Notes under the pieces: generated by a model
The model's input: only the letters and a program-made list of their open reading frames with translations
The model's database searches: none
What the model was told of the DNA's origin: nothing
In this document: positions 10,043-47,428 of the stretch, one piece after another
How positions within the stretch are numbered: the first letter of the stretch is position 1
Layout of the letters: each line of letters begins with the position of its first letter
Made by a program: the position numbers and the translations under genes
Origin: Candidatus Pollutiaquabacter aromativorans
Lineage (GTDB): Bacteria; Bacteroidota; Bacteroidia; AKYH767-A; 2013-40CM-41-45
NCBI GenBank assembly: GCA_049177215.1
Contig: CP185379.1
Coordinates: 352,957-416,956 of the forward strand
Reading direction: 5' to 3'
DNA: 64,000 nucleotides

Positions 10043-10061
10043 GCCTTGGCAGTAATTGCGG

Positions 10062-10598
10062 TCAGTCGGGCAGTGGACCGCTCTTGAACGCTTCGTGATC
10101 GGAAAAGTCCTTCACCACTTTGGCAGGAACCCCGGCCGCAAGACAACGGGGCGGCACATCCTTGGTTACCACCGAGCCGGTCGCGATCACCGCTTCGTCG
10201 CCGATGGTGATGCCCGGAGCGATGGTGACGTTCGGCATGATCCAGACGCCGCGCCCGATGCGGGTTTGCATGACTTTGCGCGGATATATTTTTTTCAATC
10301 GTGTATTCGACGGAATGTTCGCGTGCGCGGTGATGATGGTCCGGTCGCCTACGGAGGTGTGATCGCCGATGAAGATCTGATCGGTGAAGACGCGGTCGAA
10401 CATCACTTCATGACCGATGTACACGTCCTTGCCGATGTTCACGCCGCGCCACCGGTGGATGACCGTACGCCAGCTTTTGATGAAACAGAAGAACGCGAGC
10501 TTGTCAAGGAAAAACCGCCAGACGAATTTGATCGCGTAGCGCAACTTGCCCAGCGTGCCTTTGTATCCGTAAAAATCCAGTACTTCTTGTGCCGGCAT
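10062..10598 (-). CDS. hexapeptide-repeat (left-handed beta-helix) sugar O-acetyltransferase, WcaF/NeuD-like
   Basis: 178 aa. Hexapeptide repeats 'IGDHTSVGDRTIITAHANI' and 'RGVWIMPNVTIAPGITIGDEAVIATGSVV' are present. The context is a polysaccharide locus. Confidence 0.75.
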   Translation of the reverse strand: MPAQEVLDFYGYKGTLGKLRYAIKFVWRFFLDKLAFFCFIKSWRTVIHRWRGVNIGKDVYIGHEVMFDRVFTDQIFIGDHTSVGDRTIITAHANIPSNTRLKKIYPRKVMQTRIGRGVWIMPNVTIAPGITIGDEAVIATGSVVTKDVPPRCLAAGVPAKVVKDFSDHEAFKSGPLPD

Positions 10599-18327: not shown

Positions 18328-21300
18328 ATGGGACACAGATTTTACCGCAACGATGGTAAGTTGTTTCAGTGGCGTCTTCTAGTGTTGACATTGTTATTTG
18401 CAACAATGTGGACAATGGGAGCAAGAGCCCAAACAACTGTCACAATTGGCACTGGCACTTCAACAGTGAGCACAGTTCCGATTTATGGCTTTTATGGTTA
18501 TTCGTACTCTCAAATTCTGTACACCGCAACCGATATCACCGGAGGCGGCTGGGCAGGCGGCGCAGCTACGATTACTAACATTCGCTTTTATTTGAATACT
18601 GCTCCGGCGACTCCTGCGAATGACAATAGCTGGACGGTCTATTTGGGTAACACCTCGCTTACCTCCCTCACAGCGGGAGCGGCGAATTATGTGCCTACAA
18701 GCGCAATGACGCAGTGCTTTTCCGGTACGGTAACGTTTCCCGCTGGCGGAAACTGGATGGATATTACACTTTCCACTCCTTTTTCTTATTCGGGTGGTAA
18801 CCTGTTGATTGCAGTAGATGAGAATGCTGCTGGATATTCCTCCGCGTCCTGGCGTTACACAGCCGCTACCGGAATGTCCCGTTATTTGTATAGCGATACC
18901 TATAACCCGGATCCGACGGCGCTTCCGGGTTCTTATTCGGGTACCAGTAGTTCGACTGCAAACCGGCCGAACCTCCAAATGGTGATGGTTGCAGCGCCTG
19001 CCTGTAGTGGCACGCCGAATGGCGGTACTGCTACAGCTGGCACATACAATTTCTGCGGTTCCGGAAGTACACTCTTATCTGTTTCCGGATCGACTTCGGG
19101 TGTAACGGGTTTGTCTTACCAGTGGCAGTCAGGCCCCAGCGCAACGGGTCCCTGGACCAGCATTTCCGGTGCGACCAATGCAACTTATACCACACCTACG
19201 CTGACCACTACTACTTACTATCAGCGTCTGATCTCATGTACAAACAGCGGTCTGTCAAATGTCTCGGATACTACCGTTGTAAATATCAACACGGTTCCTA
19301 CTGTATCCGTGACCCCGACATCCTATAGTTCTTGTACCAGCCCGGTGGCTACTTCTCTTAGTGCATCCGGTGCCAGCACGTATTCCTGGTCACCGGCTGC
19401 GGGTTTGAACGCTACCACCGGTGCTTCGGTTAATGCTTCGGTAACTTCCTCTACCGTCTATACCGTTACGGGTACGAGCACGGAGGGATGTACCGGTACG
19501 GCGACGGCAAGTGTCAACCTCAATTATTCCCCAGCTGCGCCTACGACTACCAATTATTCGATTTGTTTGAATGGTACTGTGCCATCCGGTCAGGGGCTTT
19601 CTGTTCCTGCACCGCCTTCTTCCGGTACAGTAACAGCGGTTTTTACGGGTTCTCCGTTCACCAGTCCTGGTCCTGTAACGAGTGTAAGCACGGTATCAGT
19701 GCCCGGTCTTCCTGCAGGAGCGACCATTACCTCGGCAACCCTTCAGTTATTCACGGTTTCGGCGGTCGGTGCTTCCTATATGTCTGAAATAAGGGTCGCG
19801 CTTACCGGTGCCTATACGCTCGCCGCAACGCAGGTCAGTACTACTGGTTCGTCTGGAACTATTTCGCCTGATCCCGTCGTAAACCTCACAGGCTGGCCTG
19901 CCGCTGGAGGCTCCGTGACATTGGTCTTGTCTGAATCCTATGATGACGGCGGTACCGATGCCACAATCGCTGGTGCCCAAATCGTAATCAATTATTCTGT
20001 ACCAACCACTACAGTTTCCTGGTGGGATGCGGCCTCGGGCGGAACGCAGGTAGGTAGTGGACCGGTTTTCGATCCGGTTGCTGCTTTGCTTGTTAACCCA
20101 AGTGTTTCGGGTAATACCACATTCTATGCTCAGTATGACGCTCCTTCCTGCTCCAGCGCTCGCGTTGCCGCGGTGTTCTCTGTTGGCGCGCCCTTGACGA
20201 TATCAGCCATCACCCCCAATCCGACAGCCATTTGCCAGGGTCAGAATGGAACGTTATCCGTTAGTGTATTATCGGGTTCAGCTCCCTTCACCTATAACTG
20301 GGAAGATGGCGTGACGGGTACTATCAGTACCGCTGCATCGCCAACCATTTCGCCGACCACTACCCTGACCTATACTGTTACTGTTACGGACAACTGTAGC
20401 CAGGCTGCCTCCTCGACGGTGACGGTCCCGGTCAATCCGATCCCTTCAGTTACCGCCAGTGGTTCGGCCGCAGCTTCCTGCGGCGGATCTACGGTAGTAC
20501 TCACAGCCTCGGGAACTGCCACCAGCTACAGTTGGGCGCCCTCCACCGGCCTTAATGCCACCACTGGTGCTTCGGTCAACGCTACACCGACCACCTCAAC
20601 TACCTATACAGTAACAGGTACGCTCGGCGGTTGTACCGCCACCTATACGGTTAGTGTTGGTGCTGGAACAGCCGTCACCGTGAACTCGGTCACGGCCGAT
20701 CCCTCTTCGGTTTGTGTAGGCGGATCTACCCAGTTGAATGCCACCGGTCAGTACGCTAGCGGACTCGGACCGGTGAACACCTATACGTACGCCGGAAGCA
20801 CGAGTGGAGCTACCTTGTATGATCTTTCAGCATTACCCCCGATCCTGACAACAAGCAATGATGATACCCCCTCCGGTATTCTCACCTTGCCTTTCGCCGT
20901 GACGTTTGACGGGGTATCCTATACCGAGTGCTCCGTAAGTCCGGATGGATGGGTGCTCTTCGGGAATACGGCCGCATCGAATCAATTCACCAATCTGGTG
21001 ACGAGTACCACCAACATCCCCAAATTGTATCCTTATTGGGATGATCTGGCAACCGGAACCACAGGTTATGTGAAAGGTGCGGTAGCCGGCACGGCTCCGA
21101 ACCGGGTGCTGATCGTACAGTGGTTCGTAACAATCCCCCGGAATACAACCGGTGCAGCTAACTCCACCTTCGAAGCCCGCATCTATGAAACCACCGGTGT
21201 GGTGGAATTCCACTATGGTGCCATGGGTCCTTCTTCGACCATGAGTGCTTCGGTAGGTATGACCGGTAACGCTACCAACTTCCACAGTGTTACGCTCAGC

Positions 21301-24300
21301 AGTCTCACGTCCAGTACGGTTACGTCAAATGACGGCAATACCGACGTCCCGACCGCTGGTACAATGATCACCTACACTCCGGTTCAGCAATATGCCAGCA
21401 TCTCTTCCTTTAGCTGGTCGCCGGCTTCCGGACTGAACAATACAGCCATCGCCAACCCGACCGCGGGTCCGCTTTCCTCTGCCAGCACCTACACCGTAAC
21501 GGCTACCAGCCCTGCTGGCTGTACGGGTACCGCCTCGATCACAATCAACGTCGGCGATCCTTTGGTACTGGGTGGAATATCCGGTACCAGCACGATCTGT
21601 CAGGGTGCTTCCACCAGCCTGACGGCAACTATCACCTCCGGCAGCGGGCCCTTCACCTATAGCTGGAGCGACGGCTCCAATCCAGTTGGAACGACCAACC
21701 CGATTTCGCTTTCACCTTCGGCTACCACCATCTTCACGGTGACAGTTACGGATGGTTGCTTGGGTACCGCCACTGCTACATACACGGTCAACGTGGACCC
21801 GGCACCTTCGATTTCGGTCAGCCCGACCTCGTCCACCTACTGCTCCAGCGCCGTAGCCCTGACCGCCTCGGGCGGTACCAGCTATGCCTGGTCTCCGTCA
21901 ACCGGCCTGAACGCCACTACGGGCGTTTCCGTCAACGCCTCACCGCTGATCACGACTACCTATACCGTTACCGGTACGGGTTCGAACGGCTGTACTGCCA
22001 CCGCTACGGCTGTGGTTAACAAAGGCACTCCGATCACCAACGTGGTCGCTTCCGCTTCGCCTCAGTCATTCTGTGCACCGGGCGGTAACAGCACCCTGAA
22101 TGTGACGGCTACTGTCAACAGCACCCCTCCTGCAGCTCCAACGACCTACTGCGGCCCTACTGTTCAGTCCGGTGTAGCTTGTGTTTCTCTGGTCACCATC
22201 GGGACTTTGAACAATTCAGGGTCTGCTTGTGTGACACCGTACTATAACACTTACGCACCGACTGGCGCGAATACTACCACGCTTATCCCTGGAACCACTT
22301 ATCCGATCACGGTGACCTGCGCTGCCACAGCGATTGTTTCGGTGTGGATCGACTTCAACCGTGATGGCGTGTATGATGCCAGCGAATGGGTACAACCCTA
22401 TACGACCGGTACGACCGGTACTGTCAACATTACGGTGCCGCTTGGTGCTTCGCTCGGTCAGACCGGTATGCGCGTTCGTTCACGCTCCTCCGGCAATCCC
22501 AACGGCTCTACCGACGCCTGTTCTGACTTCGGTTCAGGCAGTTGCGAAAACTATACGGTGACCATCGGCAGCTTCACGCCGACCACCCTGTCTTACTCCT
22601 GGTCGCCTGCAGCCGGTCTGAACGATCCGTCGCTCCAGAGCCCGACTGCCAGCAGCATTGCCGGCACCACGACCTATACGGTGACCATCAGTGAAACCAA
22701 TGGCTGCACCGCCACTGGCACCACCACCATCGATGTCGGTTCCGCGCTTACCCTGAATCCGATCACGGGTACGGCTACCATTTGCCAGGGCCAGTCCACT
22801 TCATTGACCGCCAGCGTAGCCACGGGTAATGCGCCCTACACCTACGACTGGTCCGATGCTGGTGGTACGGTAGGCACCGGCAACCCGATCTCGCTGAGCC
22901 CCTCGGCTTCCTCGGTCTTCACGGTTACGGTGACAGATGCTTGCGGTCAGACTGCAACCGCTACTTACTCCGTGACGGTGAATAGCGCGCCATCGGTATC
23001 CGCTTCTCCTTCCAGTTCGTCTTATTGTGGTACGGCCGTGGCCCTTTCCGCCTCGGGCGCCGTTACCTACTCTTGGGCTCCCGGAGCCGGCCTGAACGCT
23101 ACCACCGGTTCATCGGTGAATGCTTCGCCGGTCGCTTCAACCACCTATACCGTTACCGGTACCGGATCGAACGGTTGTACGGCAACCGCGACGGCTTCCG
23201 TCACGGTAGGCACTATCTTCACCTCGGTGACCGCTTCTGCAAGCCCGTCCAACATTTGTACGGGTCAGACGGCTAACCTGACGGTGAATGCTACCCTGCC
23301 TCCATGCGCGAACTTCTACAACGTGAACAGCACGACCTACGGTCTGCAGCCGACTGCCGGCTTCACCGCTCTCGCTGGCGCCGATGATGCAGACCTCGCA
23401 ACCGGGATTTCGCTACCGTTCTCCTTCAACTTCTACGGGACCGCGCAAACCTCCATCAACATCAGTTCCAATGGCTATGCCTACTTCGGTGCAGCCAATG
23501 GTGGATCTATCTTCGCGGACGGTGTGACCAACGGTATCAGCGTTTTCTCGGCTGATATGTTCCCGACCGCCGGTCAGGTTTCTTACGGTACCGTGGGCGT
23601 TGCTCCGAACCGGATCTTTGTGATCGATTGGAACGGCATGCCTGAATATGCTGGTGGCGGTACCCATACGGGTCAGCTTCAGATTTTCGAAAGTGGCCTG
23701 ATCCAGATTCATGTGGCTTCTGCTACTTCCTCTACCCGTAACAAGACCCTCGGTCTCCGAAATACTGCCGGAACGGACAACACCTACCCTGCAGGTTTTG
23801 CAAACCTGCCGTGGACGGTGAATACGCCGACCGCCTGGACCTTCAGCCCTTGCATTTCCGCTACGATCACGGCTTACTCCTGGTCGCCCGGTGCTGAACT
23901 GGACGATGCTTCTCTCCAGTCTCCGGTTTATTCCCCGACTGCCAATGGTGTGACGACCTTTACGGTCACCGTCACCAACTCGGGCGGTTGCACGGCAACG
24001 GCGACGACTTCCGTTACGGTCGGTTCTACCATCAACGTTTCTGCTTCGGCAGCTCCGGCTACCATCTGCAGCGGCATCTCGACGACACTGACGGCTACTC
24101 CGACGGGTGGTTGTGGTGCCTACACGTATGATTGGAGCGATGGCGTGACCTCAATTGGTACGACCGCTAGTCTGTCGGTTTCTCCGTCAGCCTCCTCGGT
24201 TTATACGGTAGTAGTCACGGATAACCAGTCCAACTCTTCTTCGGCTACTGTTCCAGTAACCGTTGTAGCGTCTCCGACCGTCTCCATTTCCCCCGCCAGT

Positions 24301-27300
24301 ACGATCCTCTGTACTTCGGCTCCGGTATCGCTGACCGCTTCAGGCGCAAGCAGCTATAACTGGATTGGTACAACGATCACCGGCTCTACCACGGTCAATT
24401 TCGACGTGGCGGCTCAACCGGCTGAAACCAACGCTGCTCCGGGTAACGTGGTTGCTACGGCAACCTTGCCGGCCCTTCCGGCAGGTGCCACGATTACCGG
24501 CGCTACGCTGACGTACAACAACCTGACCGCTCTTGGTACTTCCTGGATGTCAGACATTCGCCTCGGCTTCTCCGGATCGGTTGTAAGCGCTGCAGTGGGT
24601 GGTACGGGATCTACTAATGCCGCAGGAACCTTCAACTATACCAGTTCTTTCGTCCCGACGGTGACCCTGGCTGGTGGTTCAGTCAGCCTGCTCTATTGGG
24701 ATTTCTTTAGCGATAACGCTGGCGCGGAAGCAACCTTCCCGACCGGTACCGCTGTTGCAACCCTGGTGATCAATTATACGCTCCCGGCTAATACTGCCAG
24801 CGTGACCGTAACACCGACCGCTACCACTACTTATACGGTAATTGGTACCGACGGAGTAACCGGTTGCACCAGTTCTGCTACCAGCACGATTACCATCGTT
24901 CCTCCGTTCACCCCGACGGCTTCTGCCAGCCCGGGTGCTGTTTGTTCCGGTGGTGGTTCCGCCCTGTCGGTTTCGGTTTCACCTTCCGGTACCTATACGT
25001 ACTCCTGGACTCCTGCTGCTGGTTTGAACGATCCTTCCAGCGCAAACCCGGTTGCTTCCGGAATCACGTCAACCACGGTATACACGGTGACGGCTACCTA
25101 CACCGGCAGCACCTGTTCTGCTACTGCCACTACTTCCGTGAGCGTCACTCCGCTTTCCTCGGTAACAGTCTCCGCCACTCCGGACGTGATTTGTGCCGGA
25201 CAATCGTCCAGCCTGTCATCCTTCGTCATCGGCGGCGGTGCTCCTTACCAATTTGATTGGTCAGCTGGTTCCGGTACTATTAGTACATCAGCTTCCCTGA
25301 CGGTTACGCCGGCGGGAACCACCAGCTATACCCTTACGGTGACCGATGCCTGCGGCTCTACGCTGACGGCAACACCGGTTACGGTAACGGTGAATCCTTC
25401 ACCGACCACGTTGGCTAACCCGACCTCCGCGCTCTATTGCGGCACGGCGATCTCAGTAACCGCATCCGGTGCCGCAACTTATGCGTGGTCTCCGACGGCA
25501 GGACTGAATAACTCGACTTCCGCTACCGTCCTGGCCAGCCCTACGGCGACCACGACCTACACGGTTACGGGTACCACAGCCGGTTGTTCTTCGACCGCGA
25601 CGGTGGTGATCACAGTCGGTACGCCGATCACGGTGGATGCTACGGCCGACACGACCCAGTCGTGTAGCCCGATGGGCACGGTTCTCCACGCTTGTGTAAA
25701 CCCGTCCTTCAATACCTATACGCTGGATTCTTCCAACGTTGATTACAGCGGTACAGCTGCTTCGATCCAGGTCGGCGGAAACGACGATACGGAAACGATT
25801 CTCGCCATGCCGTTTACCTTCAACTTCTTTGGTACGAACTACAGCCAGGTAATGGTTAGCACGAACGGTTACATCTCGTTCAATACCAGCAATACTTCAT
25901 TAAGTGTTGGATCGATTCCGACGGCCGGTACTCCGGATGCTTTCGTTGCCCTTACCGGTTGCGATCTGCATACACAGACTGCTGGTACGATCGATACCTT
26001 CACGGTCGGTTCGGCTCCGAGCCGGAAGTTCGTGGTTCGTTACAACGACCTGCGCTTCTTCAGCGATGCAACCACCAGTGTTGTTAACGGTAAAATCATC
26101 TTGCACGAAGGCACCGGCATCATCGAGGTACGCGTCGACAACGTGAACTCCGGTACCGACACCCGTACCCGTACGCTGGGTATTGAGAACGCAGGCGGCA
26201 CCGCTGGTTTAGCGGCCCCCGACAAGAACAATACACAATGGAACCAGACGAGTCCGGTCACGTATCGCTTCAGCCCTGCTGCCCGTACTTGTAACAACGC
26301 GGGTATCACCTTCACCTGGTCGCCGGCTACGTCTTTGAGTAGTACAGCTTCCGCTGATCCTACCGTAACCGGTCTGAGCGGAACGACCATCTACACGGTT
26401 ACCGCGCAGAACGCCAGTGGTTGCACCGCCCAGGATACGGTTACATTGATCGTATTCCCGCAGGCTGCCACGCCGACCATCACGCCGAGCGGTCCGCTCA
26501 GCTTCTGTCCGGGTGGCAGCGTAACGCTGACCTCGTCGAACAACACCTTCCCGAACCTGTGGAGCACCAGTGAGACCACCAACTCCATTACGGTGAGCAC
26601 GACCCAGAACATCAGCCTGATTGCTTATGATGCCTTCTGTCCGTCCGCTCCTGCTTCGGTGAACGTGGAACGCTATGACACCATTCAGCCGCTGATCAAC
26701 GTGGATGGTGGTGGAGTAGCACTTTGCGGTTCTTCTACCCGTACCCTGACGGCCGACGGTGGTCCCCAGTTCGTAGCTTGGACCTGGAGTACGACCGAAA
26801 CGACTCAGGCGATCACGATCGGATCCATCGGAACCTATGGTGTATCGGCTCAGGACTTCCACGGTTGTTACACCTACAACTCGGTAACCTTCGTTGCTGG
26901 TCAGACCCCGGTTGCTCCGGTCATTTCGACCACGAGTCCGCTGACGGTTTGTAACAATGATGCGGTAACGATGACCTCCGACCTGGCCGACGGCCTGACC
27001 TGGTCACCGACATTCGACAACACACAGTCGATCACCTACAACCTGTCGCCTCCCGGCACCTACGACTTCTTCGTAACCCGTGATTCGCTGGGTTGTACCT
27101 CCGAGTCGAACCACCTGAACTTCACGGTGAATCCTTCGCCTGATGTGACCGCATTCTCGCCTGCCGATTCGGCTTGTGTGGGTGATGTGATCACCTTAAG
27201 TGGTTCCGGCTTCACGAATGTGACCTCGATCAGCTTCAACGGTACTCCGGCTACCACCTACACCATCGTAGACGACTTCACCATCACGGTGACGGTACCG

Positions 27301-28011: not shown

Positions 28012-28023
28012 TCAACACTATCT

Positions 28024-28051
28024 ATGTCCCCCGCCGCAGGGCGGGGGACAT
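28024..28051 (+). terminator. GC-rich perfect hairpin directly after paralog A (no U-tract)
   Basis: 'atgtcccccgcc'(28024-28035), 'gcag' loop, 'ggcgggggacat'(28040-28051). Confidence 0.4.
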
Positions 28052-28091
28052 ATTACCCAGAGAAACAATAACCAACACTTAATAACGCACA

Positions 28092-33637: not shown

Positions 33638-33661
33638 TCGGCCTGAAGCGTATCATGAAAG

Positions 33662-33702
33662 GAAGTCCTTCCGCTACGGCGGAGGGACTTCTTTTTTTTA
33701 TT
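33662..33702 (+). terminator. intrinsic terminator after the repeat-protein gene
   Basis: Stem 'gaagtccttccgc' / 'ggcggagggacttc' with one bulge. It is followed by a T8 tract 'ttttttttatt'. Confidence 0.7.
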
Positions 33703-33839
33703 CCATAGGAATCAAGTCTAGTGTCCGATTTTATCAGGAATCGATAGAAAAGCTTGCACAGGCGACGATTTTTTTCTATATTGAAAGCTCTACGGAAACC
33801 GTTACTGCGGCGGTTTTCCGCTAATTCACCTACTCCCAC

Positions 33840-36800: not shown

Positions 36801-39692
36801 GGTGTCGTAGGTACCGCTCCGAACCGGATCTTCGTTGTTGATCTGCAGTCGGTCCCGTTCTTTGGAATCGCTTCCGGCAGTAATGTGACCGGTCAGATTC
36901 ATCTATATGAAACCTCAGGCAGGATCGAACTTCATCTTGCGAGCGTACAGCATAACGGTTCAGGTGCCTTGAACGGCATGGGTATCGAAAATGCAAGCGG
37001 TACGCGGGCACATTATCCCTTGGGTCGTAATGGGGGTTTGATCACCTGGAACGTGATCAGTCCGGAAGCATGGCGATTCGACCGTTTGCCTTTCAGCTTG
37101 AATTATTCCTGGACGCCTGCATCCGGCCTGAATAGCAGCTCAATCGCCAATCCGGTTGCCGGTCCGCTCGCAGGTTCTGCGACCTATACGGTAACAGCCA
37201 CCGATAATTTCGGATGTACGGCGACCGCCAGTCTCAGCCTGTCGGTTGGTCAACCCTTGAACGTTCAGGCCGGCGCAACAGCAACCATACTCTGTCTGGG
37301 TAGCAATACCACGCTTCAGGCGATCATCAGCGGGGGAGGGGAGCCATATGGTATTACGTGGAAACAAGGCGTGACCACCATTGGCAATACCGCGGACCTG
37401 GTCGTTACACCTCCGTTGGGCACGACAATTTATACGGTTAGCGTTTCGGATGCATGTGGTGGAACCGGTAGTTCAACGGTTCAGGTGACCGTTCTCAACT
37501 CGCCCTCGGTATCCGTCACCAGCAGTGGAAGTCTGATTTGTGGATCCGGATCCGTTACGATGACCGCTTCCGGGGCCACCAGCTATGTGTGGAGTCCGTC
37601 CATTGGACTGAGTGCGACGACCGGCACAACCGTTATAGCTTCCCCGAATGGAACCACCACCTATACGGTAACCGGATCGATTTCCGGTTGTTCGGCAACT
37701 GCCACCCGTACGATCACGGTGGCGCCGGCTGTACAGCAGTTGGATCTTTCGGCCGATCAGATCAGCGGTTGTAGTCCGTTGACCACCAGCTTGCATGCTC
37801 AGGCCTGTTTCAGCGCGCTCACGAATTATAAGGTGGATTCCTCTTCGGCGGATTATGCTCCAACCAGTTCCGGCTTCGTTACGTTCAATGGTCGTGATGA
37901 CGGTTCCGTCGTGATCGCGCTTCCGTTTCCGTTCCGGTTCTTTGGTAATACCTATTCTTCGGCATACATCAGCACCAACGGATATCTCGGCTTTGGCAGT
38001 AGCTCCTCTGCGTACACCACCGCCACCATGCCTGCTTCGGGAGTGCCGAACAATTTCATTGCCCTCGTATGGAATGACATGATTCATTCGACCGTGAATT
38101 CTGGCGTGGATACCTTTACCGTTGGGTCGCCTGGTGCAAGGGCATTTGTTGTCCGCTTCAATGCCGGGGCCGTTTCTTTTTTTGACGGGACTACGTCATA
38201 CGGTTCGTTCGGCGGCAAGATCATCCTTCATGAAAGTTCCAATGCCATCGAGCTTCGGATCGACGCGATGAATATGGGAGCCTTGGCTACCCGGAATAAA
38301 GTCCTGGGTATCGAGAATTCGACGGGACTGCTCGCCTTTTCCGTTCCCGGAAAGAACAATACCAACTGGGTGCAATCCACTCCGATCACTTATTCCTTCA
38401 CACCCAGTTTGCAGTGTTCCGGTACGTCCGCGTTTATGTATGCCTGGAGTCCTTCAACGGGATTGAATGATCCCGCATCCGCCAACCCTGTATTGACTAA
38501 TCTGCTGTCGGGAACAACCTATACGGTTACGGCTACATCAAGCGACGGTTGCAGTCGGACTTCGACACTCAGCATCCAGGTCTACAATAACCCTCCTGTC
38601 CCCACGGTTACAACCACGGGTTCCACGGATCTCTGCTGGGATGGGGTCAATCCGTTGTCATCGGTCTTATTGACCGCAGATACAACCGGTAGTGGGCCGG
38701 GTGCATCGTTCATGTGGAATGATGTTTATGGAACGTCTTCCACCAGTTTGAATGTCACACCGGATGTGGTCATTCCTTCTCCCTATGGTTTCCAGGCAAT
38801 AGTTACTGACTTCAGAGGGTGTTCGTCAACCTCAACACCGGTCAGCGTCTCTACGGCCTTGTATCCGACGATCGCCTCGCTGAATCCGAGTTCGGGTTGT
38901 CCGGGAGATTCCATCGATGTGGCGGGCACTAATTTTTCGACAGTCGTCTCGGTGGATTTCTTCGGTGTGCCAGCAGGCTTCAGGATCGTGAATGCAAACC
39001 TCCTTCGGATCGAAGTTCCACCCGGCGCGCTGAGTGGTTCCATTAACCTTGCTACCAGCACCGGTTGTTCCGAATCGTCTTCCATGTCGTTTACTGTGAA
39101 TACCTGCGGCGGTTCGCTCCTGGACATGACCTTGCTGATCCAGGGTTATTATGACGGCGCGGGCGGTATGACCGGTACCTTGTACAATTCGGGAATTTCG
39201 TTCGATCCTACCGATTGTGAATTCCTGCATGTCTGCTTGATGGATGCCGGAACGCTGACGGAGACCGACTGTTTCGATGAAGTCCTGAAAACGAACGGCA
39301 GCCTGCAGATTTCGATTCCTGGCGGGTATGTGGGCTCTTCCTTCTACCTCAAGATCACGGGCCGAAACATTCTGGAAACCTGGACGACCGCCCCGGTTCA
39401 GATCGTCAGTCCGTTCACTGTACTTGATCTGACAACTGCAGCCAACACCGTCTTCGGTGACAACCAGGTTCAGGTTTCAACTGCACCGGCCCGTTGGGCA
39501 ATCTGGAGTGGCGATTTGAATCAGGACGACTTGATTGAGGCGACTGATTATAGTACCATGGAAAACGATGTGCAACAATTCCTATTCGGCTATGTGCCAT
39601 CTGACATTACCGGTGATGGAATCGTTGAGGCCTCGGATTATGCGCTAGTAGAGAACAACAGTTTGTTGTTCCTATTCTCAATAACCCCCTGA
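33840..39692 (+). CDS. giant secreted multi-repeat surface protein (1950 aa), paralog B, with the same module grammar and the same C-terminal module (a more diverged variant)
   Basis: Signal peptide 'LIILSVYSVFFFAIRVNAQ'. The N-terminal recurring module is 'FSFTFAGTAYTQFSVNSNGLMRLG...GTAPNRQLTVEWTI...QAWLFETSNVVQYVY'. SprB-like 'FCFGGTTNLTANATGGGVPYSYSWSTGG'. It ends 'WAIWSGDLNQDDLIEATDYSTMENDVQQFLFGYVPSDITGDGIVEASDYALVENNSLLFLFSITP'. Confidence 0.85.
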   Translation: MSRLPSGKSGSYCFVRTLIILSVYSVFFFAIRVNAQTASQYTFSTATGASLTTMTGSTLIMGSNLDDSASTTINIGFSFTFAGTAYTQFSVNSNGLMRLGSTAVTNAWQNGITTGPFPALMPLWDDGHTGSNGGVRYLLTGTAPNRQLTVEWTIRSYSGETGNYTKTFQAWLFETSNVVQYVYGTGTAATSASIGIASSSTAYQSVSTSTNTASTTTPNNSVTTWAGSGRTYVFTPPVIQNCSGTPAAGTVSGTNVLCSGLTTILTASGATPTSFGGISYQWQESDDNGVGDPWASVVGGSGGTTLVYTTPALTTSRYYRLLVSCSFSGLSASTTEYLVTVNPRPTVTVSPTTSTLCAGNSVVLTASGADTYAWSPSTGLNATTGASVTATPTVSTTYTVTGTTTSSGCTATATSAINTTVGINASAGANPVNICPGGATTLNAVANTSTSGYTLASIPYQLYPTTGFTTITSWTGTADDGSAAVTLPFNWFFYGNSYTSAFIGTNGYLIFGTTSTAYQAVAIPATAAPNNYIALCWTDLNPGSGGTISYGTVGTAPNRVFVVDYSGVLFYNASGSIATGQICLFEDGHIEIHATTLDRGTSTAAAVMGIENSGGTAGTAVTGRNGGTWSVTAPEAWSFTPAYPAFTYSWSPATGLSNPNIANPGVTGVVTTSSYTVTVSGGGGCAATATATIITGQPFSVSAASSANNFCFGGTTNLTANATGGGVPYSYSWSTGGTTIGTTGALTVAPPAGTTTYTVSASDNCGNTSSATVSVTVIAPPNVGATASSSLVCGSGSVTLNATGANGYSWVPADELSVPFGATVTASPSVSTLYTVTGTDAAGCTATATVQLTVVPGVTLQATATPSNLCTGTSSQLNANATQEAPYSLAQVAYLPLSTAGFQTITSWTSAGTGNDDYFGPVALPFSFNFFGQNKSQLYIGSNGFITFGTPSTDPFSQLFPDPAHPNDVVALCWGDLDPGAGGTVKYGVVGTAPNRIFVVDLQSVPFFGIASGSNVTGQIHLYETSGRIELHLASVQHNGSGALNGMGIENASGTRAHYPLGRNGGLITWNVISPEAWRFDRLPFSLNYSWTPASGLNSSSIANPVAGPLAGSATYTVTATDNFGCTATASLSLSVGQPLNVQAGATATILCLGSNTTLQAIISGGGEPYGITWKQGVTTIGNTADLVVTPPLGTTIYTVSVSDACGGTGSSTVQVTVLNSPSVSVTSSGSLICGSGSVTMTASGATSYVWSPSIGLSATTGTTVIASPNGTTTYTVTGSISGCSATATRTITVAPAVQQLDLSADQISGCSPLTTSLHAQACFSALTNYKVDSSSADYAPTSSGFVTFNGRDDGSVVIALPFPFRFFGNTYSSAYISTNGYLGFGSSSSAYTTATMPASGVPNNFIALVWNDMIHSTVNSGVDTFTVGSPGARAFVVRFNAGAVSFFDGTTSYGSFGGKIILHESSNAIELRIDAMNMGALATRNKVLGIENSTGLLAFSVPGKNNTNWVQSTPITYSFTPSLQCSGTSAFMYAWSPSTGLNDPASANPVLTNLLSGTTYTVTATSSDGCSRTSTLSIQVYNNPPVPTVTTTGSTDLCWDGVNPLSSVLLTADTTGSGPGASFMWNDVYGTSSTSLNVTPDVVIPSPYGFQAIVTDFRGCSSTSTPVSVSTALYPTIASLNPSSGCPGDSIDVAGTNFSTVVSVDFFGVPAGFRIVNANLLRIEVPPGALSGSINLATSTGCSESSSMSFTVNTCGGSLLDMTLLIQGYYDGAGGMTGTLYNSGISFDPTDCEFLHVCLMDAGTLTETDCFDEVLKTNGSLQISIPGGYVGSSFYLKITGRNILETWTTAPVQIVSPFTVLDLTTAANTVFGDNQVQVSTAPARWAIWSGDLNQDDLIEATDYSTMENDVQQFLFGYVPSDITGDGIVEASDYALVENNSLLFLFSITP

Positions 39693-39820
39693 TTAGATTT
39701 GAAAGGTCGTAATGGTCGGCCGGAGGTTTACCAAGTAAATTGTCGCGTTTGCATAAAAACCGGACTTGGGCATGGTTTTTCTTCTGAAATCAACGATATT
39801 TAGGAGAAACGCCCCCTCGA

Positions 39821-42800
39821 ATGAACCGGAAACGCTACCCGATGAAGGCAGCCTGTAGCTGGCTGCTTGCTCTACTGCTCTTTTCTAACCTGGTCCAGGC
39901 ACAGCCTGCGAATACGTACACCTTTACAACCGGTACCGGTGTTTCTTTGGAGACGCTCAGCGCTCCGGTGGTGCTGGTGGGTTCCGGTGTAGATGATACT
40001 CCGGCATCTGCCGCTTCGGCCATCGGATTTTCATTCACCATCAACTCCAACAACTATTCGAATTTTTGGGTGAACGCAAACGGCCTGTTCGGTTTCGGAA
40101 CATCGCCGAGTACGTCGTACTCGAATTCAATTACAGCACCGCCAAGTTTCCCGGCCCTGATGCCCTGGTGGGATGACATGGGCACCGGTACAAACGGGAA
40201 CGTTCAGTACCAATTATTGGGAACATCGCCTAATCGGAAATTGGTTGTTGAATGGCGAGTTCGGAACATAGGAGAGACGGGCAACTATACCAAGACCTAT
40301 CAGCTCTGGTTGTTCGAAAGCAACTTTGCCATTCAATTCGTGTATGGGACAGGCACCGCCGGATCCTCGGCATCGATCGGCATGTCAACATCGGCTACCG
40401 AGTACCAGAGTGTTACGACCACATCGAATACCGCTTCGACGACAACTCCTGCCAATACCCAGTCCACATTTCCCGCATCCGGTCGGTATTATTTATTTAC
40501 GCCTGCCTCCTGTGCCGGAACACCCAGCCCGGGTAACACCCTTGCTTCTGCCAACCCGGTCTGCAGCGGCAGCGCTTTGACGCTATCGATGTCAACTCCT
40601 CCTTCCAGCATCGGCATCACCTACCGATGGCAGACTTCGCCGGATGGTTCGACCTGGACCAACGTAGCCGGTGCCGCTGGAAACAACGTTACCTTATCCG
40701 CGAACCCGACGGTTGCAACGTACTACCGTTGCCGTGTCACCTGTTCTGCTTCCGGCCTCAACGGCTTCTCAACGCCTTTGTTGGTGAATGTGGTGAATTG
40801 CTATAACATGCAGAATGGCTCTTTGTCCAACGTCTGTTCGGCCAGGTTTTATGATTCGGGAGGACTGGCCGCTGCTTATGCTAATGCGGAATCTTATACT
40901 CTTACCATTTATCCTACACCCGGAAATTTGCTTCGCGTGCAATTCAACTCCTTCGTCACCGAAAGCGGGTATGATTACTTGTCCATTTACAATGGCAATT
41001 CAACGGCCGCGCCTCTTTTGCTCAACACTTCCGGCTCCACCGTGCCCGGAACCTATACCTCTTCGGCCACTGATGGATCATTGACATTCCGGTTCACGTC
41101 CGACATCAGTATCACCTATGCCGGTTGGGATGCCTTATTGAGTTGTGTTTCGCTTCCTGTATGTAGTGGAACACCGACTGCCGGTACTATCAGTGGAACA
41201 TCCGGCCTGTGTGCAGGAGGAACGACAACCCTTACCGCCTCCGGATTTTCGTCCGGTGTTTCAGGGCTTTCGTTTCAATGGGAGGAGTCGGATGACAATG
41301 GCGTGGCTGATCCCTGGGCGAATGTCGTCGGTGGATCGGGTGCCAATACGAATAGCTATACCAGCCCGGCCCTGAGTGTTTCCAGGTATTACCGGATGCG
41401 GGTCACTTGTTCAAATGGAGGCGGTACTGCCACGACTTCCGGTTATTTGGTTACTGCTAATCCGCTTCCTACAGTGGCAATTGCTGCCAATCCGGGTACG
41501 ACCATTTGCGGACCGGGTGCGATTAACCTGAGCGCTTCCGGAGCTGACACCTACAACTGGTCACCTGCTTCCGGCTTGAACGCTACTACCGGTGCTTCAG
41601 TCACGGCCACCCTTTCGAGTTCTACCAGTTATACAGTTGTCGGTACGATCACTGCTACGGGGTGCACTGCGACACAAAGTGTTTCACTCAATTTGTTGCC
41701 GGGCTATTCGGTGAATGCGACGGCTAATCCGGTCAACATTTGTTCCGGTGGAAGCGCTCAACTCAACGCTGTTGCTCAAATGCCCTCAAGTTCCTATCTG
41801 TTGAATCCGATTTCTCCCGCATTGGTTTCCACCGCAGGATTCGCGACAGGCCCCGCGTCCGATGATGCGATCGTTGGCCCCATCACACTGCCCTTCAACT
41901 TCAATTTCTTCGGGTCACCGGAAGATTCGCTGTATATCTCCTCGAACGGTCATATCATATTTGGTAATTCGGCACCCGCGAGTCAATTGGCGGGCCTCAA
42001 CATACCGGATGCAACAGATCCCGATAACGTCATCGCGCTCTGCTGGGCCGACCTCAATCCGGGCTCTTCCGGTTCGGTCACCTATGGTACGGTGGGCACA
42101 GCGCCCAACAGGATCTTTGTGATCAGTTGGAACGCCGTACCGTTTTACCTGCAGTCCGGAAGCAACGTCACCGGTCAGATCCAATTGTACGAAGGTTCCA
42201 ATATTGTGGAGGTTCACATCAGCGTAATCAACCGGGGTGCATCGACCTCAAATACCGTTTTGGGGATTGAAAATGCTACCGGTTCAAGTGGACTTGCGCC
42301 CGCCAGTCGTAACGGCGGAACATGGTCGGTGAGCAGTCCGGAGGCCTGGCGATTTTCACCTTACGTTCCGGGTTATACCTATGCATGGACCCCTTCGACC
42401 GGACTCGATAATCCAACCATTCCGATGCCGATCGCCAGTGGAGTGTCAGGCACGACCGTTTATACCGTGACGGTTACGGCGGATGGTGTGTGCACGGCAA
42501 CGGCAACTGCCCTGGTGAACGAAGGAGTCGCACTGAGTGCTACGGCTTCCGCGCTTCCTGCTTCGGTATGCGAAGGGCAATCGACGCAACTGAGCGGGGC
42601 CGCTTCCGGTGGCGGGGAACCATTCGCCTATAGTTGGTCCGACGGCGTAACCGAAATCGGGACCACGCAATTGCTGACGATCACTCCCCCGGTTGGATCT
42701 TCCACCTATTACCTGACCGTTGCCGACGCCTGTGGGGGCAGCACGTCCACTACTGTTGTCGTCACCGCCCTTCCAGGGCCGGTACTTGCCCTGCAACCGG

Positions 42801-45415
42801 TTAGCGCGGTGTATTGCGGAACACCACTTGCGCTTACGGCATCTTCGGGCGGCGGAACAACCTTTGGCTGGTCGCCTGCAACGGGATTGAACGCTACCAC
42901 CGGCTCTTCTGTTAGTGCGAGTCCGGCGACCGCCACGACGTATACTGTCACCGCGACTGCTACTAATGGTTGTACGATTAGTGGTACTATTCCCATTACG
43001 ATCGGAACCCCGCTGACGGTTAGTGTCGGCGCGGACACTACACAGGGATGTGCTCCCTTCGGCTCTGTACTGCGGGCTTGTGTCAATCCGACCTTCAATA
43101 CCTATACGTTGGATTCTGCTGCCACCGATTATTCACCAGTCGGATCAACCGCTTTCATTACACTGTCCAGTGCAGATGATGGCGATGCGGCGGTCAATCT
43201 GCCGTTCCCGTTCAACTTCTATGGCGTGAATTACACCTCGATACGCGTTGGATCGAATGGCTACATCGGGATGGGAACCACCCCGGTGACTTCCCTGGCC
43301 AATCAGGCGCTTCCTTCAGCCACGGCGCCTAACGGAATCATCGCCTTGTGTTGGGACGATCTGCTTCACAGCGGACTGGCCACGGGCATCGATACATTTA
43401 CGGTGGGAACCGCGCCCAATAGAAAGTTTGTCGTCCGGTATAACGCAGGAGCGGTCGCGTTCTACAACATCGGATCACAAACCGGTTCCTTGGGCGGTAA
43501 GATCGTTTTGCATGAAGGAACCGGAGTCATCGAAGTCAGGATCGATGTGATGAATAAAGGGGTACGGATCGATAACCAGACGCTTGGAATCGAAGATGCG
43601 GCCGGATTGGCGGCTGTAACGCCTCCGGGAAAGAACAATCTGGATTGGCTTCAATCGACACCACGAACCTATCGGTTCACTCCTGCTGCACAACAGTGCA
43701 ACAACACCGGTATCTCGTTTGACTGGACACCGGCTGCCACCCTGCATGCAACAAACCTGGACACCGCTGTTATCACAGGACTGAACAGCACAACCATTTT
43801 TACCGTAACCGCGTCGAACGCTTCGGGATGCAGTGCTCAGGATACGGTGCAGATATTCGTATCGCCACAAGCTCCTACACCGGTGATTTCGAGCAGCGGA
43901 CCGCTTTCCTTCTGCCCGGGCGGAAGCGTGACGTTAACTTCTTCCAGTACGGCTTTCCCGAATTACTGGAGTACCGGCGAAACAACGAATTCGATAACAG
44001 TAAATACTACCCAGACCGTTTCGGTTTACAGTTCGGATGCTTTTTGTCCTTCCGGCCGGGCTTATGTCGATGTCGTGCGATTCGATACGGTTCCGCCGCT
44101 GATCAACGTCTCCGGCGGCGGACTCGCGCTATGTTCGGGCAACCGTGATCTGCTCTCCGATGGCGCACCGCTCTTCGTAGCCTGGAGTTGGAGCACCGCC
44201 GAAACCTCTCAGCAAATCACGATCATGAATCCCGGGACCTATGCAGTGGCCGCTACGGATACCAATGGCTGTGTAACGCATGCGGAGATAACGTTCACGG
44301 CAGGTGTCGCTCCGGTGGCCCCTGTGATCTCCACCTTGAGTTCGCTCAGTGTATGCAACAATGAATACGTGACGATCGATTCCGATATTCCGGATGGGCT
44401 CACCTGGTTCCCGACGTTTGACAATACACCGTCGATCGCCTACAACCTTTCACCTCCGGGAGTATACGACTTCTACGTTTCGCGCGACTCCCTGGGTTGT
44501 ACCTCGGAGTCCAATCACCTGGTCTTTACGGTCAATCCGACTCCGGAGGTATATTTCTTCCTGCCGGCGGACTCCGCCTGTGTGGGCGATGTCATCACCC
44601 TCAACGGTTCGGGGTTGAGCAATGTGTCTTCTATCAGCTTTAATGGCACTCCGGTCAGCGTATTCTCGGTGCTCGATGATTACACCATTCAGGTTACTGT
44701 TCCAGTCGGCGCTACGTCGGGAGGCATCACCCTGACCGATGGTTCCACCGGTTGCGCGGGTGTAAGTCCGCTGTTTTCGATTAAGGAAGTTTGCGGAGTC
44801 AGTGTAAACCTGAAGGTTTGGTTGCAGGGGTATTGTTTGCCAACTCCGTTCGGAGGTAGTATGATGCCGGTCTGGACGCAACAAATGCGATCAGATTTAG
44901 GCAATGGCAATCCGGGTTCTCCAGCAGGCACGGAAACCGATTTGGTCTATGTCGGACTCTACGACGACAATCATGTACTGCAATTTGAAGATTCGGTCAT
45001 GATCATGACGGATGGAACCGGTAGGATCGATCTCCCGGCGGCTTTCAATGGCAATAGTTATTATCTCCTGATCAAGCATCGTAGTCATGTCGCAATCCGC
45101 AGCGCCGGCTTGGTACTTATGAGCCCGGTAGTGACCTATGATTTCACGCTGTCAGAAAGTCAAGCGGATAATAACGGATCAAACTTCGGTATGACCCAGC
45201 TCTCCAATGGCGAGTGGGCGATGTGGGTAGGTGATGTTACCCAGGACGGATTTGTCGGGGGTGACGACGTGGGAAGTGTCGACAATGACAACTTGCTCGG
45301 GATTTATCTGGAGTATAGAAATTCGGATGTGACCGGGGATGGCTTCGTTGGTGGAGATGATGTCGGTGCGGTTGACAACAATAATCTCTTGGGGGTCTAC
45401 TATTTCTATCCCTGA
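39821..45415 (+). CDS. giant secreted multi-repeat surface protein (1864 aa), paralog C; the last ~560 aa are about 70% identical to paralog A
   Basis: Signal peptide 'CSWLLALLLFSNLVQAQ'. It has the same N-terminal module as B ('FSFTINSNNYSNFWVNANGLFGFG...GTSPNRKLVVEWRV'). The C-terminus is 'WAMWVGDVTQDGFVGGDDVGSVDNDNLLGIYLEYRNSDVTGDGFVGGDDVGAVDNNNLLGVYYFYP'. Confidence 0.85.
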   Translation: MNRKRYPMKAACSWLLALLLFSNLVQAQPANTYTFTTGTGVSLETLSAPVVLVGSGVDDTPASAASAIGFSFTINSNNYSNFWVNANGLFGFGTSPSTSYSNSITAPPSFPALMPWWDDMGTGTNGNVQYQLLGTSPNRKLVVEWRVRNIGETGNYTKTYQLWLFESNFAIQFVYGTGTAGSSASIGMSTSATEYQSVTTTSNTASTTTPANTQSTFPASGRYYLFTPASCAGTPSPGNTLASANPVCSGSALTLSMSTPPSSIGITYRWQTSPDGSTWTNVAGAAGNNVTLSANPTVATYYRCRVTCSASGLNGFSTPLLVNVVNCYNMQNGSLSNVCSARFYDSGGLAAAYANAESYTLTIYPTPGNLLRVQFNSFVTESGYDYLSIYNGNSTAAPLLLNTSGSTVPGTYTSSATDGSLTFRFTSDISITYAGWDALLSCVSLPVCSGTPTAGTISGTSGLCAGGTTTLTASGFSSGVSGLSFQWEESDDNGVADPWANVVGGSGANTNSYTSPALSVSRYYRMRVTCSNGGGTATTSGYLVTANPLPTVAIAANPGTTICGPGAINLSASGADTYNWSPASGLNATTGASVTATLSSSTSYTVVGTITATGCTATQSVSLNLLPGYSVNATANPVNICSGGSAQLNAVAQMPSSSYLLNPISPALVSTAGFATGPASDDAIVGPITLPFNFNFFGSPEDSLYISSNGHIIFGNSAPASQLAGLNIPDATDPDNVIALCWADLNPGSSGSVTYGTVGTAPNRIFVISWNAVPFYLQSGSNVTGQIQLYEGSNIVEVHISVINRGASTSNTVLGIENATGSSGLAPASRNGGTWSVSSPEAWRFSPYVPGYTYAWTPSTGLDNPTIPMPIASGVSGTTVYTVTVTADGVCTATATALVNEGVALSATASALPASVCEGQSTQLSGAASGGGEPFAYSWSDGVTEIGTTQLLTITPPVGSSTYYLTVADACGGSTSTTVVVTALPGPVLALQPVSAVYCGTPLALTASSGGGTTFGWSPATGLNATTGSSVSASPATATTYTVTATATNGCTISGTIPITIGTPLTVSVGADTTQGCAPFGSVLRACVNPTFNTYTLDSAATDYSPVGSTAFITLSSADDGDAAVNLPFPFNFYGVNYTSIRVGSNGYIGMGTTPVTSLANQALPSATAPNGIIALCWDDLLHSGLATGIDTFTVGTAPNRKFVVRYNAGAVAFYNIGSQTGSLGGKIVLHEGTGVIEVRIDVMNKGVRIDNQTLGIEDAAGLAAVTPPGKNNLDWLQSTPRTYRFTPAAQQCNNTGISFDWTPAATLHATNLDTAVITGLNSTTIFTVTASNASGCSAQDTVQIFVSPQAPTPVISSSGPLSFCPGGSVTLTSSSTAFPNYWSTGETTNSITVNTTQTVSVYSSDAFCPSGRAYVDVVRFDTVPPLINVSGGGLALCSGNRDLLSDGAPLFVAWSWSTAETSQQITIMNPGTYAVAATDTNGCVTHAEITFTAGVAPVAPVISTLSSLSVCNNEYVTIDSDIPDGLTWFPTFDNTPSIAYNLSPPGVYDFYVSRDSLGCTSESNHLVFTVNPTPEVYFFLPADSACVGDVITLNGSGLSNVSSISFNGTPVSVFSVLDDYTIQVTVPVGATSGGITLTDGSTGCAGVSPLFSIKEVCGVSVNLKVWLQGYCLPTPFGGSMMPVWTQQMRSDLGNGNPGSPAGTETDLVYVGLYDDNHVLQFEDSVMIMTDGTGRIDLPAAFNGNSYYLLIKHRSHVAIRSAGLVLMSPVVTYDFTLSESQADNNGSNFGMTQLSNGEWAMWVGDVTQDGFVGGDDVGSVDNDNLLGIYLEYRNSDVTGDGFVGGDDVGAVDNNNLLGVYYFYP

Positions 45416-45597
45416 GAGATCCGAAAAATGTTTATCCCAGGTCAGGGTGTCCAATACCCTGCAGGATCGATTGGCAACCTGATTTGGAAGTTGTATTTAG
45501 AGGGTAAGAAAAAATAGCGATTTCAGGGTTTTTGCCCTGAATTGCAGGTTATTCATGATCCCAATGTTGAAAAAGGACTTGTCTTTCTAGCAAAAAC

Positions 45598-46881: not shown

Positions 46882-46913
46882 TGAAAAAGTAAATCCCCAC
46901 GAGAATATCAAAA

Positions 46914-46947
46914 GCCTGCCAGAGGTTCTTCTGGCAGGCTTTTTTAT
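46914..46947 (+). terminator. intrinsic terminator after paralog D
   Basis: Perfect stem 'gcctgccag'(46914-46922) / 'ctggcaggc'(46931-46939), followed by 'ttttttatttgg'. Confidence 0.7.
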
Positions 46948-47349
46948 TTGGGGTAAAGGAAGCTTGGGAGTGGGTGGGAGCTTGAATCTTCGTTCAGGCG
47001 ATTTGTTCAGTGATTGAATTCGCGGTTGCCGAAAGCAGGGTTTGGCGTTTCCATGCACTCGGCACTTCCGCGATGGTTGCTTGAATCTCAGAGTAGGGAA
47101 ATCGGCTTACAATGTATATCCACAAATTGCAGTCGACTGTGTGGCCCCACGGGTGGTCTGTCGAAGTGAACGGATCCGTGGCGAGTTTAGCCAGGTTGCG
47201 GTTCAACTAACAGGGGATGAATGAAGTTGGCCGATTGATTCTGCCGCATCGTATGTTAATCTTATCATATCCATTTCGATCGACTTTAAGCCGATTGCGC
47301 TGACCTGGAGTGTTCGGTCGGGGCAAGGCCGGTTAAGTGTAAATGAAAA

Positions 47350-47374
47350 GGGGGTTGCAGGATATGCAACCCCC
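47350..47374 (-). terminator. intrinsic terminator for smc (minus strand)
   Basis: 'gggggttgca' / 'tgcaaccccc' perfect 10-bp stem. On the minus strand it is followed by 'ttttcattt'. It lies 55 nt past the smc stop. Confidence 0.55.
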
Positions 47375-47428
47375 TTCGGGATGTCGGCTGACAAATTAGC
47401 TGTTGCCCGGAACAGGAGCGGGCATTGC

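Follow-up and report, generated by a model that had tools for sequence, protein, structure and literature searches.

A recurring all-beta module in three giant proteins of Candidatus Pollutiaquabacter aromativorans, a likely distant relative of the NIDO domain

Introduction

The surface proteins closest to those described here are RemZ of Flavobacterium johnsoniae and RemA, of which RemZ is a homologue. A type 9 secretion C-terminal domain of type A is present in both (PMC10994853), and RemA has a lectin domain as well (PMC12618676). Chain D of PDB entry 8GL6 was deposited as RemA but is identified in its paper as RemZ, and only the C-terminal domain of this substrate is resolved. NIDO, in turn, is a domain of the human extracellular matrix found in nidogens, mucin-4, alpha-tectorin and SNED1, and has no known function, partner or published structure. 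Our literature searches found no functional description of the N-terminal domain of RemZ and nothing on bacterial NIDO-like domains. Here, we examine a window of 64,000 nucleotides (nt) from the bacteroidote Candidatus Pollutiaquabacter aromativorans (contig CP185379.1, positions 352,957 to 416,956), in which three giant genes, A, B and C, encode several copies of a module of about 200 amino acids (aa). A preliminary description, made from the letters of the DNA, had named the module a candidate NIDO-like domain. The module is real, but it is not a new kind of domain; giant proteins of Bacteroidota carry it in very large numbers, and it is probably a divergent branch of a superfamily that is known but has no assigned function.

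Ten copies in three giant proteins

The three giants are listed below with their layout, in which Ig stands for immunoglobulin-like and ORF for open reading frame. The signal peptides were predicted from the sequence.

18328-28011, + strand: giant A, ORF of 3227 aa, signal peptide at about aa 1-35; N-terminal domain without a family match, Ig/PKD stalk, three modules, one GEVED domain, two copies of a domain of ~130 aa and a dockerin-like C-terminus
33840-39692, + strand: giant B, ORF of 1950 aa, signal peptide at about aa 1-36; four modules (subtypes I-II-II-III) with Ig/PKD units between them and a dockerin-like C-terminus
39821-45415, + strand: giant C, ORF of 1864 aa, signal peptide at about aa 1-28; three modules (subtypes I-II-III), a CUB domain, an Ig/PKD stalk and the C-terminal domain shared with the other giants

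Copies of the module were mapped by anchoring on the 'NG(Y/F/L/H)' core, alignment with MAFFT and mapping with a hidden Markov model (HMM). There are exactly ten, of 180-202 aa, and an HMM built from them detected no further copies among all six-frame ORFs of the window. They are listed here with their subtype and, where there was one, their score against the Pfam NIDO model.

20776-21381, + strand: module A1 (aa 817-1018), subtype I, RemZ-like
23311-23850, + strand: module A2 (aa 1662-1841), subtype II
25711-26277, + strand: module A3 (aa 2462-2650), subtype III, the last module of A
33954-34547, + strand: module B1 (aa 39-236), subtype I, immediately downstream of the signal peptide
35190-35762, + strand: module B2 (aa 451-641), subtype II, NIDO 16.1 bits
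36492-37085, + strand: module B3 (aa 885-1082), subtype II, NIDO 19.1-19.4 bits, the copy used for modelling
37821-38405, + strand: module B4 (aa 1328-1522), subtype III, NIDO 16.7 bits
39911-40504, + strand: module C1 (aa 31-228), subtype I, immediately downstream of the signal peptide
41789-42361, + strand: module C2 (aa 657-847), subtype II, NIDO 21.0 bits
43097-43684, + strand: module C3 (aa 1093-1288), subtype III

The recurrence reported in the preliminary description is thus borne out, with all ten copies lying where they had been placed. The starts given there were accurate to within ~60 nt, but some of the 3' ends (those of A1, B1 and C1) had been set 100-150 nt short. About four copies had been claimed for each giant; the actual numbers are three in A, four in B and three in C, which is also what the coordinates listed in that description amount to. 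The placing of modules at the extreme N-terminus of B and C was correct, as B1 and C1 begin 2-3 residues past the predicted signal-peptide cleavage sites, which were read from the sequence.

Mean column identity in the alignment of the ten copies is 46 %, and nine columns are invariant (Y3, D32, F42, G60, D92, G107, R112, E140 and G164). The skeleton of conserved motifs that had been proposed is real; subtype I departs from it at several motifs (IGFSF, LMPLWDD, TFQAWLFE and SIGIAS). Identities among members of subtype I (A1, B1 and C1) are 35-57 %, and these share only ~24 % with the other copies. Mutual identity is 36-52 % in subtype II (A2, B2, B3 and C2) and 43-51 % in subtype III (A3, B4 and C3). 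An HMM built from any single subtype nonetheless detects the other subtypes at E values between 9e-11 and 1e-46, and the repeat is therefore not a chance pattern. The order I-II(-II)-III is kept in all three giants, with subtype II doubled in B. Such constancy suggests that the copies diverged long ago and have stayed in place, and speaks against recent tandem duplication. In B, the modules recur at a regular spacing of ~435-443 residues.

Relationship to RemZ and to NIDO

When the ten-copy profile was compared with all PDB sequences, there was one strong match, to residues 23-227 of 8GL6 chain D (1436 aa). It covers the full length of the profile (positions 1-193; E 8.2e-29, 103.8 bits). Judged by sequence comparison, the closest named relative of the module is the N-terminal domain of F. 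johnsoniae RemZ.

Among the Pfam families, only NIDO (PF06119, a model of 186 positions with a gathering cut-off of 25 bits) recurs on the module and its relatives. In a family alignment of 100 sequences, made up of the ten copies and 90 relatives taken from a profile search of 5.8 billion proteins, 17 sequences match NIDO at E<=0.01, the best with 61 bits. Half of ten strong matches from a library of representatives also match NIDO, up to model positions 2-131, and different members of the family cover model positions 2-113, 2-131, 78-150 and 77-127. Summed over the whole protein, the NIDO scores of B (45.4 bits) and C (36.2 bits) are above the cut-off.

A direct comparison was made with nidogens. 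An N-terminal sequence of nidogen-1 was confirmed by Pfam as full-length NIDO (207 bits, positions 2-186) and then used to retrieve real nidogen sequences. Aligned with hhalign against the nidogen sequence or alignment, the 100-sequence family alignment gave a probability of 60-62 % and E values of 7e-5 to 9e-5. Four motifs fall in register, namely F.F.G..Y..L.V..NG.I.F, P.W.DL with PF.ADLD, FVV.W..V with VVVTWE.V, and TFQ..L, and a low-stringency alignment reaches a length of 134 columns. Controls in which the NIDO columns were reversed once and shuffled 20 times scored 8-12.3 (E 0.4-0.9, probability <=0.1 %), against 35.9 for the real alignment.

Several results weigh against this kinship, and they would fit a different explanation, in which the module belongs to a bacterial RemZ-N-terminal family only and its likeness to NIDO is a short beta-hairpin motif (F.FYG..Y..L.V..NG.I.F) reached by convergence. 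All single-copy scores (16-21 bits, for B2, B3, B4 and C2) are below the 25-bit cut-off, and these hmmscan matches cover only model positions 2-51 or 2-68 of 186. Scanned singly against Pfam, A1, A2, A3, B1, C1 and C3 gave no NIDO match. The hhalign probability is only about 60 %, the ten window copies on their own are not significantly similar to nidogen-1 (E 0.13), and a ~20-residue insertion of animal NIDO faces a gap in the module in the hhalign alignment. However, a convergent hairpin does not account well for matches of other family members as far along the model as position 150, for four motifs in register over 134 columns, or for the distance between the real score and that of every one of the 21 controls. 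We regard convergence as distinctly improbable and remote homology of the module to NIDO as likely. From these alignments, the module family would be a distant branch of the NIDO superfamily that does not have the insertion of animal NIDO. Single copies do not belong to Pfam NIDO in the strict sense, and the label NIDO-like that had been given to the module is partly supported, by the family as a whole rather than by any copy taken by itself.

Predicted structure

Module B3 was modelled with AlphaFold2 using the 100-sequence alignment. The model has a mean predicted local distance difference test (pLDDT) score of 92.8 and a predicted template modelling score (pTM) of 0.91, and consists of 11 beta strands with no helix of 4 or more residues. 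The insertion typical of animal NIDO is absent, and a helix has been predicted in the corresponding part of the NIDO domain of SNED1. The preliminary description had looked to structure prediction and a fold search to settle the family; a confident beta domain was obtained, but Foldseek found nothing significant in the PDB (best E 0.07). No NIDO structure turned up in the PDB sequence and Foldseek searches with the module, and the AlphaFold model of the nidogen NIDO domain, made from 42 nidogen fragments, was poor (pLDDT 51). There is no model for the module in NCBIfam.

The legume lectin or concanavalin A-like fold was the most frequent entry in the Foldseek PDB list. These matches are not significant, with E>=0.07, probability <=0.08, a template modelling (TM) score of ~0.15 and a root-mean-square deviation (rmsd) of ~17 Å, and we assign the module neither to lectins nor to CBMs on their account.

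Among the predicted viral structures in BFVD, there are matches to the module fold, the best being a protein from an uncultured member of the Caudovirales (E 5.7e-9, TM 0.78, rmsd 2.8 Å over 198 columns). Further BFVD matches carry LRR or RCC1 domains. Because a tblastn search of GenBank phages gave a single match, to an unannotated 635-kb metagenomic jumbo-phage record, the link to phages comes from the predicted BFVD structures only.

Size and distribution of the family

A search of 1.84 billion cluster representatives with the ten-copy HMM (hmmsearch) found 35,586 proteins at E<=1e-3, with 21,726 at E<=1e-10 and 2,780 at E<=1e-30. The family is very large, yet domain catalogues cover it poorly. 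The best 150 were re-mapped and contain 2-14 copies each, in proteins of up to 5429 aa. Their copies are arranged back-to-back (150-250 aa) or are spaced by 400-450 aa or by ~725 aa, and in 53 of 149 top members the first copy starts no more than 80 residues from the N-terminus.

Related loci in named genomes were sought with an alignment of three subtype II sequences. They are mainly from Bacteroidota (Chitinophagales, Flavobacteriales including Chryseobacterium, and Cytophagales), with scattered matches in Planctomycetota, Cyanobacteria, Chloroflexi and Polyangiales. Domains typically found alongside the module in these relatives are Ig_7, fn3, the type 9 secretion C-terminal domains and SprB repeats. 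In Chryseobacterium and related genera there are tandem arrays of proteins of ~700 aa in which the module is N-terminal, and PEP-CTERM proteins (P0083 and P0084) are also among the relatives.

A close relative of this region is in a metagenome-assembled genome (MAG) labelled 'uncultured Chitinophaga sp.' (L001), the DNA of which is 91 % identical to window positions 38120-48261. Its orthologue of C is 93.9 % identical and has no indels, with identities of 90-96 % for the modules and 99 % for the C-terminal domain. The level of identity of the modules, together with the lack of indels, indicates that the modules of C are under purifying selection. A second relative, an A-like protein on contig L002, has four modules and is 39 % identical to A overall and 87-94 % identical over the last 500 residues.

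Contigs L002 and L003 (GenBank accession numbers CAZGQB010000031.1 and CAZGQB010000218.1) are labelled 'uncultured Sulfuritalea sp.', a betaproteobacterium. They share 85-92 % nucleotide identity with window positions 26278-29190 and 31463-35651 and encode the same adhesins, and were probably mis-binned in the Sulfuritalea MAG. The module profile also matches one protein each from entries under the bdelloid rotifers Rotaria sp. (P0064, E 6e-15) and Adineta steineri (P0077, E 1e-12). Both have weak, sub-threshold matches to Stig1 in Pfam and no NIDO match, and their occurrence there could be due to horizontal transfer or contamination.

Spacers and payload slots

The modules alternate with Ig-like and PKD-like units. 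An Ig-like repeat with the motif '(Y/F)xW(S/T/A)P..(G/S/E/T)L' (WSP-type) starts 7-12 residues downstream of eight of the ten modules. The preliminary description had put such a repeat after every module, but B1 and C1 are instead followed by an Ig_7-type domain ('YQWQ/YRWQ'), and the regular alternation that it proposed applies to the internal copies but not to these two N-terminal ones. In five of the ten cases, the WSP-type Ig unit is followed by a 'P(Y/F)xYxW' unit and then by a second WSP-type unit before the next payload. This triplet and the payload slot of A are found at the following positions.

35763-36491, + strand: example spacer triplet (B aa 642-884), made up of a WSP-type Ig unit, a 'PYSYSW' PKD-like unit and a second WSP-type Ig unit
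37086-37820, + strand: the same triplet in B
42362-43096, + strand: the same triplet in C
21382-22107, + strand: the same triplet in A
22144-22581, + strand: payload slot of A (aa 1273-1418), containing a GEVED domain (GEVED match aa 1337-1412)

Pfam assigns the spacers to K319L-like PKD and to Ig_7 (CHU_C-associated Ig). They had previously been taken in part for SprB-type Cys repeats, but there is no Pfam match to SprB (PF13573) in the spacers of the giants, including the 'P(Y/F)xYxW' repeat, and genuine SprB repeats were found only in neighbouring ORFs (28092-30047 and 30848-33637), which lie between A and B.

Not every slot between spacer triplets is filled by a module; in A, such positions also hold the GEVED domain and the ~130-aa domain, and in C a CUB domain. 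The A-like protein on contig L002 has a module resembling subtype II (aa 1264-1449 of ORF 3-10262; E 9.5e-50) in exactly the slot that is occupied by GEVED in A. The Ig units on either side of this slot are conserved between the two proteins, while the domains in the slot itself bear no relation to each other (BLASTP E 0.33). As a module stands here where A has GEVED, and the flanks are conserved, the modules and the other domains are exchangeable payloads on a conserved Ig/PKD scaffold. The presence of GEVED and CUB on the same stalks is expected if the slot holds exchangeable heads.

Other payloads were noted in passing. The CUB match in C (40877-41134, aa 353-438) scores 27.2 bits against a cut-off of 21.4 and occupies a payload position with Ig_7 units on both sides. 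The N-terminal domain of A (18433-19002, aa 36-225) directly follows the signal peptide, which is the tip position held by subtype I in B and C, and it had no match in Pfam or NCBIfam scans. The ~130-aa payload of A is found at 19525-20013 and 24325-24822 (aa ~445-560 and ~2035-2160). The two copies are 40 % identical (E 4e-18), and a Pfam scan gave no match for them. A similar protein is encoded on contig L004, a homologue with a match to the proprotein-convertase P-domain, which may or may not be equivalent to the ~130-aa domain of A.

Possible function of the modules

On balance, and with some reserve, we favour the view that the module is an autonomous, secreted, all-beta domain that acts as the binding head of a surface adhesin. 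Proteins A, B and C would be exported via the Sec signal peptides read from their sequences. Their Ig/PKD-like runs would form an extended stalk, as their Pfam domains and the analogous SprB- and RemA-type adhesins suggest, and the dockerin-like C-terminal domain, given its conservation, may hold or sort the giants at the cell surface. The modules would be carried by the stalk as payloads, with subtype I at the distal N-terminal tip of B and C, and subtypes II and III in slots set apart by the three-domain Ig-PKD-Ig spacer. As binding heads, they could provide multivalent attachment to an external ligand, for which a polysaccharide or another surface polymer is most plausible. Since the order of the diverged subtypes is conserved, the three subtypes may represent three different specificities rather than simple reiteration. 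As the N-terminal domain of RemZ belongs to the same family, the distal tip of that adhesin is a candidate binding head too.

That the giants adhere, that their stalk has this shape and that they are anchored at the surface is inferred, and a number of observations tell against this reading. Neither a ligand nor a binding site has been reported for the domain from any organism. Its best-conserved residues (D92, G107, A109, P110 and R112) could be structural, for example forming a buried salt bridge, rather than ligand-binding. The likeness to legume lectins is not significant and is accompanied by no sequence signal, and the matches in phages are to uncharacterised proteins. The giants are not RemA orthologues, with no type 9 secretion C-terminal domain and no Pfam lectin domain found; none of A, B and C matched a Pfam lectin domain at E<=0.1, nor Por_Secre_tail or CHU_C at E<=0.1 in Pfam and NCBIfam. 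With no such recognised C-terminal domain, export of the giants across the outer membrane and their anchoring at the surface are putative.

The main rival to a binding head is self-association, in which modules bind each other, within or between subtypes, or a partner protein to build a sheath, a matrix or a cell-cell aggregate and there is no foreign ligand. The parallel would be with the part in matrix assembly suspected for the animal NIDO proteins nidogen, alpha-tectorin and SNED1. The likely homology to NIDO, which is found in extracellular-matrix proteins, would suit such a role, as would the presence of several subtypes in each protein and of three paralogues side by side. The PEP-CTERM proteins that carry the domain (P0083 and P0084) are of a type associated with exopolysaccharide and floc formation. 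However, no interaction has been reported in the literature for any NIDO domain, and the N-terminal tip position and the exchange with GEVED and CUB fit an outward-facing head as well or better. We consider self-association unlikely, though less so than the explanations that follow.

The module could also be passive, a bulky element that spaces out or stiffens the fibre and binds nothing. It is all-beta and recurs in B at regular intervals, and its invariant residues could all belong to the core or be structural. The stalk, however, already has dedicated spacers in its Ig/PKD units, and a module can fill the slot that GEVED occupies in A. The module is also the N-terminal tip domain in B, in C, in RemZ and in about a third of the top family members, and purifying selection maintains three subtypes whose order does not change. 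A purely passive role is thus quite improbable in our view. An enzymatic domain, such as a jelly-roll glycoside hydrolase or lyase using the conserved D and E residues, is very improbable indeed, for although D32, D92 and E140 do not vary among the ten copies and the weak Foldseek matches include PL26 lyase and glycosidases, those matches are not significant (E>0.6), only D92 of the three residues is near-invariant in the 100-sequence alignment, no catalytic family was found in Pfam, NCBIfam or the PDB sequence search, and three or four diverged copies on a fibrous stalk would be unusual for an enzyme.

C-terminal domain and neighbouring genes

The C-terminal domain shared by the giants is encoded in four adjacent genes.

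27337-28008, + strand: shared C-terminal domain of A, ~224 aa, with a beta-rich part and two dockerin-like repeats
~39018-39689: equivalent domain in B
~44741-45412: equivalent domain in C
46210-46878: equivalent domain in an ORF of 427 aa (45598-46881)

The dockerin-like repeats have the form 'GDVxQDGFxGGDDVGxVDNxN', and the domain ends in '...Y..P*'. The domain of A is 42 % identical to that of the 427-aa ORF (E 4e-37), and the repeats in B match Pfam Dockerin_1 with 24.6 bits. NCBIfam has no model for the shared domain, and a homologue search with it found five unnamed fragments only. It may be an undescribed sorting or anchoring domain.

Neighbouring genes include those for Por_Secre_tail proteins at 30848-33637 and 13897-15456 (- strand), an SMC protein and a TonB-dependent receptor. 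With type 9 secretion substrates, an SMC protein and a TonB-dependent receptor, the gene content fits a Bacteroidota genome.

A tandem array is present at 29139-31646 on the + strand, with a period of 81 nt, 30.8 copies and 87 % match, encoding a 27-aa repeat. It spans the overlapping ORFs 28092-30047, 30025-31026 and 30848-33637, which together include SprB, fn3_4, PKD_6 and Por_Secre_tail. These three ORFs are probably a single large adhesin gene, split within the array by frameshifts that are either real or due to assembly.

Upstream of A, an ORF of 489 aa (16255-17724, + strand) has a weak match, below the cut-off at 20.7 bits, to Wzi-like proteins (outer-membrane capsule assembly). Its product could be an outer-membrane partner of the giants. 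We take the minus-strand ORFs that lie across modules (e.g. 20833-21285 and 37473-38087) to be by-products of the G+C-rich coding strand.

Significance

No new principle emerges from this analysis. It provides a better label for a common domain, and its value lies in annotation and in a model for the NIDO fold. The Pfam NIDO model misses most of the copies described here, and a dedicated model would annotate tens of thousands of giant proteins now called 'hypothetical'. The bacterial branch, modelled at pLDDT 93, is also tractable material for studies of NIDO structure and binding.

A bolder interpretation can be offered only tentatively, as we think it rather less probable than otherwise. The module would then represent a very large (>35,000 clusters at 50 % identity) and essentially undescribed family of head domains without a solved structure. 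Animal NIDO would have its prokaryotic counterpart in this family, and might even derive from it. The module would be an exchangeable cassette on giant Ig stalks, swapped with GEVED or CUB, that diversifies adhesin specificity, and the giants would have replaced the type 9 secretion C-terminal domain with an undescribed dockerin-like sorting or anchoring domain.

Comparison with known systems

The legume lectin or concanavalin A-like beta-sandwich resembles the module in being all-beta, a similarity that is not significant. Animal NIDO (PF06119, SM00539; nidogen-1 and -2, alpha-tectorin, mucin-4, SNED1, Drosophila mesh and Caenorhabditis elegans DEX-1) is closer. Like the module, it is extracellular, mostly beta and of similar size, it is part of multidomain adhesive or matrix proteins, and the shared motifs are in the same order. 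However, the near-invariant G-T-A-P-N-R motif of the module has no counterpart in nidogens.

The giant type 9 adhesins of the SprB type are, like A, B and C, built from a signal peptide followed by thousands of residues of Ig-like repeats with occasional other domains. They share the Ig_7 'CHU_C associated' domains with the giants, and genuine SprB/PKD_6/Por_Secre_tail genes lie between A and B. The giants differ in having no SprB repeats, CHU_C or Por_Secre_tail, and their regularly spaced NIDO-like payloads have not been described for SprB.

RemZ has one copy of the domain, whereas the giants have three or four, mostly internal, and the giants have a dockerin-like C-terminus in place of the type A type 9 secretion C-terminal domain of RemZ and RemA. 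In other respects, RemZ is the nearest system. It too is a large Bacteroidota surface protein, its domain directly follows the signal peptide, as do B1 and C1 but not the other eight copies, and it shares features of subtype I with the module, including the long tail after the 'SIGI' strand.

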